From assembly GCF_003018255.1 (NCBI RefSeq), contig NZ_CP027440.1: DNA of 64,000 nt. The stretch is one strand, 5' to 3'. A program made the position numbers and the translations under genes. Below the pieces are notes generated by a model. It saw only the letters and a list, made by a program, of their open reading frames with translations. It made no database searches and had not been told where the DNA came from. This document shows positions 2,543-43,184 of the stretch, one piece after another. The stretch's first letter is position 1. Every line of letters starts with the position of its first letter. Source of the stretch: Escherichia coli. Lineage in GTDB: Bacteria > Pseudomonadota > Gammaproteobacteria > Enterobacterales > Enterobacteriaceae.

Positions 2543-4060
2543 TTATTTCACCGGACGCATCGCCGGGAACAGAATAACGTCGCGGATGGTATGACTGTTG
2601 GTGAACAGCATTACCATACGGTCGATACCAATTCCCAGACCTGCTGTCGGCGGTAAGCCGTGTTCCAGTGCGGTGACGTAATCTTCGTCGTAGAACATCG
2701 CTTCGTCGTCACCTGCATCTTTCGCGGCAACCTGATCCAGGAAGCGCTGCGCCTGATCTTCCGCGTCATTCAGCTCGCTAAAGCCGTTACCGATTTCACG
2801 CCCACCAATGAAGAACTCAAAGCGGTCTGTGATTTCCGGGTTAACGTCGTTACGACGCGCCAGAGGAGAAACTTCTGCCGGATATTCAGTAATGAAGGTC
2901 GGCTGGATCAGATGTGCTTCTGCCACTTCTTCGAAGATCTCGGTAACGATACGGCCCAGACCCCAGCTCTTCTCAACGTGGATGCCGATAGATTCAGCAA
3001 TCGCTTTCGCAGAGTCGAAGTTGTCCAGATCCGCCATGTCGGTTTCCGGGCGATATTTCTTGATCGCTTCACGCATGGTCAGTTTTTCGAACGGTTTACC
3101 GAAGTCCAGCGTTACGTCGCCGTAGGTCACTTCCGTCTTACCGAGAATATCCTGTGCCAGAGTACGGAACAGCGATTCGGTCAGCTCGATCAGATCTTTG
3201 TAATCTGCGTAAGCCATATAGAGTTCCATCATGGTGAACTCTGGGTTATGACGTACGGAAATACCTTCGTTACGGAAGTTACGGTTGATTTCGAATACAC
3301 GCTCGAAGCCACCGACCACCAGACGCTTGAGGTACAGTTCCGGCGCGATACGCAGGTACATGTCGAGATCCAGCGCATTATGGTGGGTGATGAACGGACG
3401 CGCAGCGGCACCGCCAGGGATCACCTGCATCATCGGCGTTTCAACTTCCATAAAGCCGCGGTTCACCATGAACTGGCGAATACCAGAGAGGATCTGCGAG
3501 CGCACTTTAAAGGTGTTGCGGGATTCATCGTTAGAGATGAGATCCAGATAACGCTGACGATAGCGCGCTTCCTGATCCTGCAAGCCGTGGAATTTATCCG
3601 GCAGCGGACGCAGTGCTTTGGTCAGCAGACGCAGCTCGGTACAGTGGATAGACAGTTCGCCGGTTTTGGTTTTGAACAGTTTACCTTTCGCGCCGAGGAT
3701 ATCGCCGAGGTCCCATTTTTTGAACTGCTCGTTGTAAACGCCTTCCGGCAGATCGTCACGGGCAACGTACAGCTGAATGCGGCCCCCCACGTCCTGCAGG
3801 GTAACGAAAGACGCTTTACCCATAATACGACGGGTCATCATGCGGCCGGCAACGGCGACTTCGATGTTCAGCGCTTCCAGTTCTTCGTTCTCTTTACCGT
3901 CGAATTCTGCGTGCAATTGGTCAGAGGTATGATCGCGACGGAAATCGTTCGGGAAGGCAATCCCCTGCTCGCGCAGGTTCGCCAGCTTCTCACGACGCGT
4001 TTTCAGTTCATTGTTAAGATCGACTACCGCGTCAGCGCCCTGTGCGTGTTGTTCAGACAT
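2543..4060 (-). CDS. lysS: Lysyl-tRNA synthetase, constitutive (505 aa)
   Basis: ORF 2543-4060; class II aaRS sequence; start lies 10 nt downstream of the prfB stop, as in the prfB-lysS operon. Confidence 0.95.
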
Positions 4061-4069
4061 GTTGGTTCC

Positions 4070-5168
4070 TCATAACCCTGCTTTCAAACTTGCTTCGATA
4101 AATTGATCCAGGCTGCCGTCCAGCACGGCCTGCGTGTTACGGGTTTCTACCCCGGTACGCAGATCTTTAATGCGGGAGTCATCAAGGACATAAGAACGAA
4201 TCTGGCTGCCCCAGCCGATGTCGGATTTGTTATCTTCCATCGCCTGCTTCTCGGCATTTTTCTTCTGCATCTCCAGTTCATAAAGCTTCGCTTTCATCTG
4301 CTTCATGGCCTGGTCTTTGTTCTTGTGCTGGGAACGGTCGTTCTGGCACTGGGTCACGATCCCAGTTGGGATGTGAGTAATACGCACCGCAGATTCGGTA
4401 CGGTTAACGTGCTGACCGCCCGCGCCGGACGCGCGATAAACGTCAATGCGCAGATCCGCCGGGTTGATTTCGATATCAATATCATCATCAACTTCCGGGT
4501 AAACAAACGCAGAGCTGAACGACGTGTGGCGACGACCGCCGGAGTCAAACGGGCTCTTACGCACCAGGCGGTGAACGCCAGTTTCTGTACGCAGCCAGCC
4601 GTAAGCGTAATCGCCGGAGATTTTGATCGTCACGGATTTAATACCCGCCACTTCACCTTCCGACTCTTCGATGATTTCAGTTTTGAAACCACGCGATTCT
4701 GCCCAGCGCAGATACATACGCTCAAGCATGCTCGCCCAGTCCTGTGCTTCCGTACCGCCAGACCCCGCCTGAATATCGAGGTAGCAGTCGGCGCTGTCAT
4801 ATTCGCCAGAGAACATACGGCGGAACTCAAGCTGCGCCAGTTTTTCTTCCAGAGCGTCGAGTTCAGCAACGGCTTCGTTAAAGGTTTCTTCGTCGTCAGC
4901 TTCTACAGCCAGTTCCAGCAGACCAGAAACATCTTCCAGCCCCTGTTTCATTTGGTCGAGGGTATCGACAACGGCTTCGAGAGAGGAACGCTCTTTACCC
5001 AGCGCCTGTGCGCGTTCGGGTTCGTTCCAGACATCCGGCTGTTCCAGCTCGGCGTTTACTTCTTCCAGACGCTCTTTCTTGGCGTCATAGTCAAAGATAC
5101 CCCCTAAGAACGTCGGAGCGTTCCGTGAGGTCCTGAATGCGATTATTTACCGGATTAATTTCAAACAT
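4070..5168 (-). CDS. prfB: Peptide chain release factor 2 (365 aa) with programmed +1 ribosomal frameshift
   Basis: ATG at 5168; 25 codons in frame 0 end in CTT followed by in-frame TGA (plus-strand 5091-5096), with an AGGGGG SD-like element just upstream; the +1 frame continues to the stop at 4070; track ORF 4070-4951 is the downstream part. Confidence 0.9.
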
Positions 5169-5258
5169 GGTCTGATTTCTTTTATTGAGCTAGTCAAAAT
5201 GCGGTGATAAGAGCGGGATTGTACCCAATCCACGCTCTTTTTTATAGAGAAGATGACG

Positions 5259-6992
5259 CTAAATTGGCCAGATATTGTCGATGATAATTTGCAGGCTGCG
5301 GTTGCCGCGAAACTCGTTGATATCGAGCTTGTAAGCCAGTTGCACTTCGCGCACGCCGTTATCCGGCCAGAGGGCGGTATCGACATTAAAAGCAATACCA
5401 TCCAGCAGCGGACCGCCGCCGACCGGCTCGACCATGACTTTCAAATGACGCTCGCCCACCAGCCGCTGTTGCAGCAGACGGAAATGACCGTCAAACAGCG
5501 GCTCCGGGAACATCTGCCCCCACGGGCCAGCATCGCGCAGCAGCTGCGCCACTTCCATAGTCATTTCGGCCGGGCTTAACGGACCGTCTGACACCACTTC
5601 GCCTTGCAATAGTGAAGGATCCAGCCACTCGGTAACCAGCTCGCCAAACCGTTGTTGAAAGAGTTCGAATTTATCCTCTTCCAGCGACAAACCCGCCGCC
5701 ATCGCATGGCCGCCAAACTTGAGCATCATGCCGGGGTAGAGTGTGTCTAATCGCTCCAGCGCATCACGCATATGCAGCCCCTGAATGGAGCGACCGGAAC
5801 CTTTCAGCGTACCGTCACCTGCTGGCGCAAACGCGATAACCGGACGGTGAAAACGCTCTTTGATGCGCGAAGCCAGAATACCGACAACGCCCTGATGCCA
5901 TTCGGGGTGGTACATTGCCAGCCCGCCGGGTAACGTGTCGCGGCTGCGCTCCAGTTTCTCGCACAGGGTCAGGGCTTCAATCTGCATTCCTTGTTCGATC
6001 TCTTTTCGCGTCTGGTTTAGCGCATCGAGTTCATTTGCCAGCACGCGCGCTTCGCCGATGTTGTCGCACAGCAACAGCGCCACACCGACGGACATATCGT
6101 CCAGTCGCCCGGCAGCATTGAGACGTGGCCCCAGCGCAAAACCTAAATCGCTGGCGGCGAGTTTTAGTGCATCACGGTTTGCCACTTCCAGCAGCGCTTT
6201 AATCCCTGGACGGCACTTTCCGGCACGGATGCGACTCATCCCCTGCCAGGTGAGGATGCGGTTATTGGCGTCCAGCGGCACGACGTCCGCCACTGTCCCC
6301 AACGCTACCAGATCCAGCAGTTCTGCCAGGTTAGGAATTGCGACGCCGCGCTCATCAAACCAGCCCTGATCGCGCAAAAAGGTGCGCAGCGCCAGCATCA
6401 GATAAAACGCCACACCCACGCCTGCCAGTGATTTCGACGGAAAATTACAGTCGCGCAAGTTAGGGTTAATGATCGCTTCCGCCGCGGGTAATGTTTCGCC
6501 CGGCAAATGGTGATCGGTAACAATAACCGGAATGCCCAACGAGCGAGCGTGTTCAACGCCCGAATGGGAGGAAATACCGTTATCCACCGTGACAATTAAC
6601 TGCGCGCCACGGGCATGGGCCTGATCGACCACTTCCGGGCTTAAGCCGTAACCGTCTTCGAAACGGTTTGGAACCAGGTAGTCGATATTGCTGCAACCAA
6701 GCGAGCGCATCGCCAGCACGCTTAGAGCCGTGCTGGTCGCACCGTCGGCGTCGAAATCACCGACCACAATAATCCGCGTTCCTTCGCGAAAAGCGTTGTA
6801 AAGGATCTCAACGGCCTTTTCGACGCCGCTCAGTTGCTGCCAGGGCAGCATGCCTTTAACACTGCGTTCCAGTTCCTGCGCGCTACGCACACCCCGGCTG
6901 GCATATAAACGGCGCAGCAAGGGAGGCAATTCAGCGGGCAAGTCGGCCGTTTCATCGACTTCTCGGCGACGAAGTTGTATCTGTTGTTTCAC
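5259..6992 (-). CDS. recJ: Single-stranded-DNA-specific 5'-3' exonuclease RecJ (577 aa)
   Basis: ORF 5259-6992; DHH/DHHA1 phosphoesterase sequence; position between prfB and dsbC. Confidence 0.9.
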   Translation of the reverse strand: MKQQIQLRRREVDETADLPAELPPLLRRLYASRGVRSAQELERSVKGMLPWQQLSGVEKAVEILYNAFREGTRIIVVGDFDADGATSTALSVLAMRSLGCSNIDYLVPNRFEDGYGLSPEVVDQAHARGAQLIVTVDNGISSHSGVEHARSLGIPVIVTDHHLPGETLPAAEAIINPNLRDCNFPSKSLAGVGVAFYLMLALRTFLRDQGWFDERGVAIPNLAELLDLVALGTVADVVPLDANNRILTWQGMSRIRAGKCRPGIKALLEVANRDALKLAASDLGFALGPRLNAAGRLDDMSVGVALLLCDNIGEARVLANELDALNQTRKEIEQGMQIEALTLCEKLERSRDTLPGGLAMYHPEWHQGVVGILASRIKERFHRPVIAFAPAGDGTLKGSGRSIQGLHMRDALERLDTLYPGMMLKFGGHAMAAGLSLEEDKFELFQQRFGELVTEWLDPSLLQGEVVSDGPLSPAEMTMEVAQLLRDAGPWGQMFPEPLFDGHFRLLQQRLVGERHLKVMVEPVGGGPLLDGIAFNVDTALWPDNGVREVQLAYKLDINEFRGNRSLQIIIDNIWPI

Positions 6993-23847: not shown

Positions 23848-24033
23848 ATTTCTCTGAGATGTTCGCAAGCGGGCCAGTCCCCTGAGCCGATATTTCATAC
23901 CACAAGAATGTGGCGCTCCGCGGTTGGTGAGCATGCTCGGTCCGTCCGAGAAGCCTTAAAACTGCGACGACACATTCACCTTGAACCAAGGGTTCAAGGG
24001 TTACAGCCTGCGGCGGCATCTCGGAGATTCCCT
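23848..24033 (+). ncRNA. ssrS: 6S RNA, RNA polymerase sigma-70 holoenzyme regulator
   Basis: Sequence ATTTCTCTGAGATGTTCGCAAGCGGGCCAGTCCCCTGAGCCGATATTTCATACCACAAGAATGTGGCGCTCCGCGG... matches E. coli 6S RNA as I recall it; lies between zapA and ygfA. Confidence 0.9.
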
Positions 24034-24654: not shown

Positions 24655-24711
24655 GGGCGACACACCTGCATCGCCCTGATTGACATCGTTGATTCTTTAA
24701 CCTAATTTAGT

Positions 24712-24856
24712 GAGTAAGGGTAAGGGAGGATGACTCCTCCCCTGAGACTGACTGTTAATAAGCTGGGAAACTTATGAGTAACAGTACAATCAGTATGATG
24801 ACAAGTCGCATCATAACCCTTCTCCTTCAAGCCCTCGCTTCGGTGAGGGCTTTACC
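24712..24856 (+). ncRNA. sibC: SibC-type antisense sRNA (type I antitoxin); boundaries approximate
   Basis: + strand region fully antisense to ibsC, ending in the hairpin GCCCTC-gcttcggt-GAGGGC followed by TTT; K-12 has sibC/ibsC between ygfA and serA. Confidence 0.5.
24755..24814 (-). CDS. ibsC: Type I toxin IbsC, 19-aa hydrophobic peptide
   Basis: Minus-strand ORF read from sequence: ATGATGCGACTTGTCATCATACTGATTGTACTGTTACTCATAAGTTTCCCAGCTTATTAA = MMRLVIILIVLLLISFPAY; GGAGAAGGG SD upstream. Confidence 0.7.
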   Translation of the reverse strand: MMRLVIILIVLLLISFPAY

Positions 24857-41343: not shown

Positions 41344-41627
41344 AGATCTCCTGCAAGGTTTTCCCTGAGCAAATTTGCCAGACAGAGTAATCCAGCAAAT
41401 CGTCCGGGGAAACCTTACCTGTCGCAAACTGCGACTGATTGGTTAATTGTCGAACATTTAATCGACTGAAACGCTTCAGCTAGGATAAGCGAAACGTGGA
41501 ATAAAAGGAATGATTGTCCAGTCAAAGAAGACATTTATCTGACTTACATCACACTTTTATCCCCTTTTGTAGGGGGCTTTATTCCAGGCTGGCGTAATAA
41601 TACCCCTGCAATAACTGGAATAAATTG

Positions 41628-42341
41628 TCAGCTTTTGAAGTGATATCTGCCTTCTTCGGTCATCTCTAATATCAGATTGGCCTGACGACTATTCACCAGC
41701 ACACGCTCGACATTGGGACCATCGGTTCGGGCATAAAAAGCTTCGGCTTCTTGCCGCGATAATCCTCCCGCAATTTTACGACTAATCAAGCGCTCCCGCA
41801 GAATTTGAGCAGGTGCATGAATAAAAATAGAAAAATCGCAGAAAGATGCCAACTCCTGCCACTTTTCATCATCCAGTAATAGCCAGTTTCCTTCGACGAT
41901 GACGAGGGGTGCGGTAACGTGCAGCGCATCTTCAACAGGATCATGCTTTTGTCGATCGTACTGCGGCCACGTACAATCCCCTTCCACAACCCGGCACAGA
42001 TTTTCCGCCAGTTTCGCAACGTTGAATGTCTCTGGTGCGCCTTTGAAGGGGCGCAATTGATGCGCATCCAGCCAGCTATTGTAATGGTGAAAACCATCCA
42101 TCGGCAGCGTCTGTATAGCGGGTAGTTCCGGGTCTTGTTGCGCGAGATATTCCCAGAAGGTGGTTAGGGTAGATTTACCCGTCCCCGGCGGAGCGCAAAG
42201 AAAAACCACCGTACGCCGCTGCGGATTTACCGTCTGTAAGGCCGCCAACATGCGCAGCAACGGTTTATGTACATTTTCTATCTCATCAACATGGTACTGT
42301 GCTTGTACCTTCAGACCATTCACCGTTAATTCAATTTTCAC
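41628..42341 (-). CDS. yggC: P-loop nucleoside/nucleotide-kinase-like protein YggC (237 aa)
   Basis: ORF 41628-42341; Walker A GTGKST; apparent GTG start overlapping the yggD stop. Confidence 0.75.
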   Translation of the reverse strand: MKIELTVNGLKVQAQYHVDEIENVHKPLLRMLAALQTVNPQRRTVVFLCAPPGTGKSTLTTFWEYLAQQDPELPAIQTLPMDGFHHYNSWLDAHQLRPFKGAPETFNVAKLAENLCRVVEGDCTWPQYDRQKHDPVEDALHVTAPLVIVEGNWLLLDDEKWQELASFCDFSIFIHAPAQILRERLISRKIAGGLSRQEAEAFYARTDGPNVERVLVNSRQANLILEMTEEGRYHFKS

Positions 42342-42847
42342 GGCGTTAATTCCTTTAAGGTGGTCGTTACTGCCAGCGTCAGCGCCGTTTTGACCATCCC
42401 GCTAAAACGCGCCTCTGACCAGACGGCGAAATCGGCGAACTTCATCGCTTTCAACGCGTCATAGAGAGTCGCATTGCGGGTTATGCTATTGACGTTGCTT
42501 ATAAAATCCCAGGTCATGTCATCGGCAAATCCGGGCGTTTCATCCTGTTCGTTCAGGTAATGCCAGAACTGGGAAAAATGCGTGATATCGGCGTACAGCC
42601 ATTTATCCATTTTCCCCAGCGCATAAATCAAACGCAGCGCAACATCAATATCGTCAAGCGGGCCGCTTTGGGCGAGTAACGGCTTCACTGCATATTCGAC
42701 GATCTCTTCATCATTATCGACAAACAGCGACGGCAGAAACTGGCGTATCCCCTGGAGCAAAATAGAATGCGCAGTTTTCATAAATGAAAATAAATTGTCC
42801 TGTGCCTCCAGTTGCTCAAGCACATCATCTTCTGTCAGCGTCGCCAT
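42338..42847 (-). CDS. yggD: MtlR-like transcriptional regulator YggD (169 aa)
   Basis: ORF 42338-42847; position between yggC and the yggF remnant. Confidence 0.75.
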   Translation of the reverse strand: MATLTEDDVLEQLEAQDNLFSFMKTAHSILLQGIRQFLPSLFVDNDEEIVEYAVKPLLAQSGPLDDIDVALRLIYALGKMDKWLYADITHFSQFWHYLNEQDETPGFADDMTWDFISNVNSITRNATLYDALKAMKFADFAVWSEARFSGMVKTALTLAVTTTLKELTP

Positions 42848-42868
42848 TGGTCTTCCGATAGATCACCA

Positions 42869-43184
42869 TCAATGCAGGGAGTCTATTATATTACACGTTT
42901 GGTCCGCGCCGCCGATCAGTAATGTCTGCGTCCGCACCCCATTCGCCGTCTGTTGGATACCGTTCACCAACTCGCCGCCCGTCACGCCCGTAGCGCTAAA
43001 GAGGATATCGTTCCCCCTCGCCGATAACCACTCGCCCACGAAAAGCGACGTCGTTTAATGCCTGGCGCATCGCGGTGACCGCCAGGCCATCAATTTTATT
43101 TTTGTCGCCACATCCGGTTTGCGGCCAGGCAGCCAACGCTGCCTGTTCCGTAACGCGAAATAATGGCCACGCCAGGGACATCAT
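42869..43184 (-). pseudogene. yggF: Remnant of class II fructose-1,6-bisphosphatase gene yggF (GlpX family): about 56 N-terminal codons joined out of frame to about 40 C-terminal codons
   Basis: Track ORF 42996-43184 ([20 protein letters not shown]...VVIGEGE) is a GlpX-type N-terminus ending in a premature TAG; the +1 frame of the same DNA continues ...[49 protein letters not shown] to a stop at 42869; only about 0.33 kb remains where a roughly 1-kb gene is expected. Confidence 0.6.

Follow-up and report, generated by a model that had tools for sequence, protein, structure and literature searches.

Organization of the prfB locus

The window, i.e. the whole 64,000-nucleotide stretch of Escherichia coli DNA that was analyzed, carries on its minus strand a complete prfB gene encoding release factor 2 (RF2) (4070..5168), whose 1099 nt correspond to 25 + 340 codons with nucleotide 5093 skipped. 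The start codon, read directly from the sequence, is the ATG at 5168–5166. It opens a first reading frame (ORF0, 5094..5168, minus strand) of 25 codons, corresponding to residues 1–25 of the crystallized E. coli RF2, after which a stop is encountered. A second reading frame (ORF1, 4070..5092, minus strand), shifted by +1, begins at 5092 with GAC (Asp26) and runs without a stop for 340 codons up to Leu365, ending with the TGA at 4072–4070. Joining frame 0 (5168–5094) with the +1 frame (5092–4070) thus gives a protein of 25 + 340 = 365 amino acids. When prfB is read through in a single frame, 26 stops are met, and the program-made list of open reading frames contains the gene as two pieces, an ATG-initiated one of 293 amino acids (4070–4951) and one of 25 amino acids (5091–5168). 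A previous reading of the sequence only (hereafter the sequence-only reading) had stated that the ORF track gives the downstream 293-amino-acid part only and that the true gene spans 4070–5168, and these limits match the ends of the prfB CDS annotated by RefSeq on identical DNA. As naive ORF calling fragments RF2, prfB needs a joined CDS annotation (5168–5094 with 5092–4070). The value of this point is one of annotation only: a naive ORF caller reports fragments of 293 and 25 amino acids and not the essential 365-amino-acid RF2.

Downstream of prfB and in the same orientation lies lysS (2543..4060, minus strand), identified from the RefSeq annotation of a related genome and from the ORF list, the two genes forming a prfB-lysS pair. 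The start of lysS is found 9 nt past the prfB stop (TTATGAGGAACCAACATG), and its GAGG Shine-Dalgarno sequence overlaps the prfB TGA (4060–4075, minus strand). Such an arrangement points to an operon in which prfB and lysS are closely packed and may be translationally coupled.

On the other side, a 90-nt spacer separates the recJ stop (5259) from the prfB ATG (5168) and contains, on the minus strand, a strong hairpin (AAGAGCG-GGAUUG/CAAUCC-CGCUCUU, 5209–5239). The spacer folds with −23.4 kcal/mol (z = −3.1), a value reached by 1 of 200 shuffled sequences; the hairpin is identical in K-12 and its stem is not directly followed by a U-run. It could correspond to a recJ terminator or attenuator, or to a stabilizer of the mRNA end. 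A scan of 3900–5500 for promoter and terminator consensus sequences did not reveal any convincing sigma-70 promoter between recJ and prfB; it returned one internal 9-of-12 match and one terminator-like match on the plus strand, both at chance frequency.

The frameshift cassette of prfB

The sequence-only reading had described the series AGGGGG-TAT-CTT-TGA-C on the minus strand, with CTT as codon 25 followed by an in-frame UGA, and each element was found where it had been placed, inside the span 5085–5110 proposed for the site. The first element is an internal Shine-Dalgarno-like AGGGGG (5100..5105), separated by 3 nt from the CUU shift codon downstream of it, in agreement with the reported consensus and spacing (PMC12421855). 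The 3-nt spacer (5097..5099) is the codon UAU (Tyr24), which according to the literature occupies the E site when the shift takes place. It is followed by the slippery CUU-U (5093..5096), which directly precedes and overlaps the stop: the P-site tRNA-Leu is described as re-pairing from CUU (5096–5094) to UUU (5095–5093) (PMC12421855). CTT and TGA are codons 25 and 26, respectively, when counted from the ATG. The stop (5093–5091) is close to the 5′ end of the gene and is TGA, the type read by RF2, as expected for a cassette in which TAG never occurs; together with the C at 5090 it forms the last element (5090..5093), a UGA-C known as a weak termination context (PMC12421855). In Bacteria, the consensus of the motif consists of AGGGGG, a 3-nt spacer, then CTTTGA, which hardly varies, and after it a conserved C (PMC12421855).

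The exact 16-nt cassette has a single occurrence in the 64-kb window, also when up to two mismatches are allowed, with 0.02 occurrences expected, and the loosened pattern GGNGGNNNCTTTGA, in which the core is degenerate, is likewise encountered once, with 0.12 expected. We also looked for an additional stimulatory RNA structure around the site: the segment 5140–5040 folds with −26.5 kcal/mol, which is at chance level compared with shuffled sequences (z = −0.43) and thus fits a mechanism that requires no downstream structure. Scanning the complete window against Rfam revealed no curated family at the frameshift site and no rRNA gene; the 16S rRNA tail carrying the complementary anti-Shine-Dalgarno sequence is expected in E. 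coli.

Identity of the product

To establish what the two frames encode together, we translated 5168–5094 in frame 0 and 5092–4070 in the +1 frame and compared the fusion with known proteins. The phmmer search against PDB sequences gave a colinear alignment with E. coli RF2 (1gqe, E-value 8e-241) from residues 1–365 to residues 1–365 with no gaps, spanning the Leu25-Asp26 junction; the match with the K-12 protein (1ml5 and others, E-value 1e-240) differs at residue 246 only. The prediction that a +1 shift at CUU-U yields a continuous 365-amino-acid RF2, which a lack of colinearity with RF2 would have contradicted, is therefore borne out. The NCBIfam model TIGR00020 (prfB) matches residues 12–362 of the fusion with 525.9 bits for a cut-off of 370, whereas the RF1 models score under their cut-offs on the same protein, and both Pfam domains, PCRF and RF-1, are present. 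The sequence and its alignment with RF2 also place an SPF tripeptide at residues 205–207 (4547..4555, minus strand), the stop-codon recognition motif of RF2. By the same means, the GGQ motif responsible for peptidyl-tRNA hydrolysis (PMC5373646) was located at residues 250–252 (4412..4420, minus strand). Model, domains, alignment and both motifs agree that the gene hosting the cassette encodes the class-I release factor 2.

The gapless junction also bears on the way in which the frame is restored. A −2 ribosomal shift would land in the same frame as a +1 shift, and the path taken is invisible in the sequence alone; such a shift would, however, insert an additional residue where the two frames meet, in conflict with the gapless alignment of the one-base-skip fusion with the solved RF2, and it was rejected on this ground. 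Transcriptional slippage on the T run would dispense with a slip of tRNA-Leu as well, but a run of three T is established to be too short for efficient slippage. The conserved spacing of the Shine-Dalgarno-like element, the CUU-U and the RF2-specific UGA-C rather fit the +1 autoregulatory model of the literature, and we consider restoration of the frame by one of these other routes very unlikely.

The same alignment is relevant to a reading of the locus as two cistrons, in which a 25-codon leader peptide would precede an independently initiated, shorter RF2 and AGGGGG would be an ordinary ribosome-binding site. AGGGGG is indeed strongly Shine-Dalgarno-like and an ATG-initiated ORF of 293 amino acids is listed in the +1 frame, but this frame lacks any ATG, GTG or TTG at Shine-Dalgarno distance after AGGGGG: its first listed start is at 4951, about 150 nt downstream, and the ATG at 5088 belongs to the third frame. 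Moreover, residues 1–25 are contiguous with Asp26 in the solved E. coli RF2 chains, and the N-terminal 72 residues fall in the region covered by the prfB model (match 12–362). Without a +1-frame start at the proper distance and with residues 1–25 joined to Asp26, two independent cistrons appear extremely improbable, and this organization was rejected in favor of a single gene decoded through a programmed +1 frameshift.

Conservation of the frameshift site

A 1.5-kb query (window 3900–5400) matches E. coli DETEC-S792 (NZ_CP116067.1) with 100% identity and was found once in 5425 of the 5426 complete E. coli genomes, in every case across a prfB flanked by recJ and lysS. On the identical DNA, RefSeq annotates prfB as a joined CDS in two pieces, marked "programmed frameshift", its ends corresponding to window positions 5168 and 4070, and the K-12 MG1655 gene carries an annotation of the same form. 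With an 80-nt query centered on the site, a match of at least 95% identity was obtained in 5423 of the 5426 genomes; the other three probably have an assembly gap or a local variant there. The first 81 nt of prfB, which include the cassette, are the same as in K-12, and the 16 nucleotide differences between the two genes are all 3′ of the frameshift site. Read in the +1 frame, 15 of these 16 substitutions are synonymous, against a single one when the +2 frame is used and zero with frame 0; this bias indicates that the +1 frame, which contains no stop between the site and the gene's own end and is colinear with RF2, is under purifying selection downstream of the site.

Beyond the prfB region, the whole window is about 98.7% identical to DETEC-S792. 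It lacks, at about 41552–41698, some 3.3 kb of sequence that follows epd in DETEC-S792 and contains genes for a PPC-domain protein and an ECF transporter, and the adjoining 1.3 kb (41698–43019) shows 92.9% identity to that genome. The interval from about 41552 to 43019 is the boundary of a strain-variable island, and the window comes from a strain different from DETEC-S792. The Rfam scan of the whole window also returned two RNAs on the plus strand, 6S RNA (ssrS, 23848–24031, 139.8 bits) and a Sib antitoxin RNA (24680–24830, 136.5 bits), the latter opposite the type I toxin gene ibsC annotated in a related genome.

We then scanned one genome per species (298 Gb) for the exact 16-mer and retrieved at least 120 loci. 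By our own arithmetic, about 140 chance matches are expected in 298 Gb on both strands, and genomic context was therefore tested locus by locus. Because only loci with the exact motif entered the set, it informs on the specificity of the motif to prfB and on the divergence of its flanks, and not on the frequency of the motif among prfB genes. For 115 of the 120 matches listed, the +1 frame after the motif is in register with RF2 residue 26; together with the 5423 of 5426 E. coli genomes, this places the cassette at the homologous position in orthologs. The other five of the 120 listed comprise three matches truncated at the locus end and two that are chance-like: in L041 (637–652, plus strand) and L062 (7240–7255, plus strand), the exact 16-mer lies outside any RF2-like frame, the +1 ORFs being 19 and 11 codons long, which is consistent with chance matches in 298 Gb.

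The matches listed include prfB genes of diverse Gammaproteobacteria, Betaproteobacteria, Bacteroidia and others, and RF2 identity at the confirmed loci among them goes down to 43% (Bacteroidia and others). At these confirmed loci, again among the matches listed, the upstream ORF0 has mostly 24–27 codons, and the downstream ORF is 340 codons long in 80 cases of the matches listed. Third-codon positions flanking the motif are about 40–53% conserved in the same motif-selected set (among the matches listed).

The 26 stops of the single-frame reading and the splitting of the gene in the ORF list could also be attributed to an inactivating frameshift (pseudogene) or to a sequencing or assembly error, but this explanation was rejected as exceedingly unlikely, given that the identical break is present in essentially every complete E. 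coli genome and, among the matches listed, at the same codon in 115 loci of other species, that it sits within a complete canonical cassette, that the downstream substitutions are synonymous in the +1 frame in 15 of 16 cases, as under purifying selection, and that the fused protein is the crystallized RF2.

Proposed mechanism

Results of the present analysis are the presence of the sequence elements, the arrangement of the reading frames, the nature of the product and the conservation; the occurrence of the shift, its response to the level of RF2 and the roles of the Shine-Dalgarno-like element and of the E site are taken from the literature. On this basis, translation would start at the AUG (5168) and proceed for 25 codons, at which point the P site would hold tRNA-Leu paired with CUU and the A site would contain UGA. 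UGA-C is a poor stop signal, read by RF2 alone. With plentiful RF2, termination would occur at the UGA and a 25-residue peptide would be released, whereas with scarce RF2 the ribosome would pause at this codon. AGGGGG, 3 nt upstream, would then pair with the anti-Shine-Dalgarno tail of the 16S rRNA, the short spacing destabilizing or displacing the E-site tRNA; tRNA-Leu would slip by one base from CUU to UUU, GAC (Asp26) would be decoded next and translation would run on to the 365-amino-acid RF2. The outcome would be a negative feedback by which RF2 sets its own level.

Frameshifting, and its decrease with rising RF2, were shown experimentally for the identical K-12 sequence (PMC12421855, PMC5373646), and we infer that frameshifting would respond to RF2 in this strain as well. 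Taken together, our results, none of which speaks against this reading, make it virtually certain that 4070–5168 (minus strand) is prfB of E. coli, with an intact autoregulatory programmed +1 frameshift cassette, AGGGGG-UAU-CUU-UGA-C.

Given the position of lysS, the decision taken at codon 26 might also set the output of lysyl-tRNA synthetase (LysRS), passing the autoregulation of RF2 on to this enzyme; we regard this idea, drawn from the gene layout only, as unlikely. The route could be translational coupling, or polarity on the prfB mRNA, of which approximately 1 kb stays untranslated when termination occurs at UGA26.

Comparison with known RF2 genes

The programmed +1 frameshift of E. coli K-12 prfB was reportedly described by Craigen et al. 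in 1985, by Craigen and Caskey in 1986 and by Weiss et al. in 1987–88. The K-12 gene has the same 16-nt cassette at codons 25/26, the same 365-amino-acid product and the same neighbors, recJ upstream and lysS downstream. Of the 16 substitutions by which the window differs from it downstream of the site, the one that accompanies the 15 synonymous changes affects residue 246: codon 246 (4432–4430, minus strand) is GCG (Ala) in the window and ACG (Thr) in K-12 MG1655, the two proteins being otherwise identical in amino-acid sequence. Ala or Ser at position 246 is the canonical, more active form, whereas Thr246 is a peculiarity of K-12 with lower release activity (PMC5373646), and this less active variant goes with a higher expression of RF2 (PMC5373646). 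The presence of Ala246 instead of the Thr246 of K-12 thus assigns the window to a non-K-12 strain and suggests that its RF2 has the full activity typical of E. coli other than K-12, for which the published comparison would imply less frameshifting and a lower steady-state level of RF2 than in K-12.

The RF2 of E. coli B type (e.g. PDB 1gqe) resembles that of the window in having Ala246, a length of 365 amino acids and an alignment over the full length. The two differ at one position of the C-terminal helix, at about residue 298, where 1gqe has Val and the window Leu, with no bearing on frameshifting.

The +1 frameshift of prfB has been described as a textbook case, with its elements and mechanism laid out (PMC12421855), and its motif was found in 64% of 12,753 genomes (PMC12421855). 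The site reported here is already known and has nothing unusual: it is a classic autoregulation by recoding, whose presence is expected in E. coli. Compared with the prfB cassettes described across Bacteria (PMC12421855), that of the window is the consensus form, with no difference.
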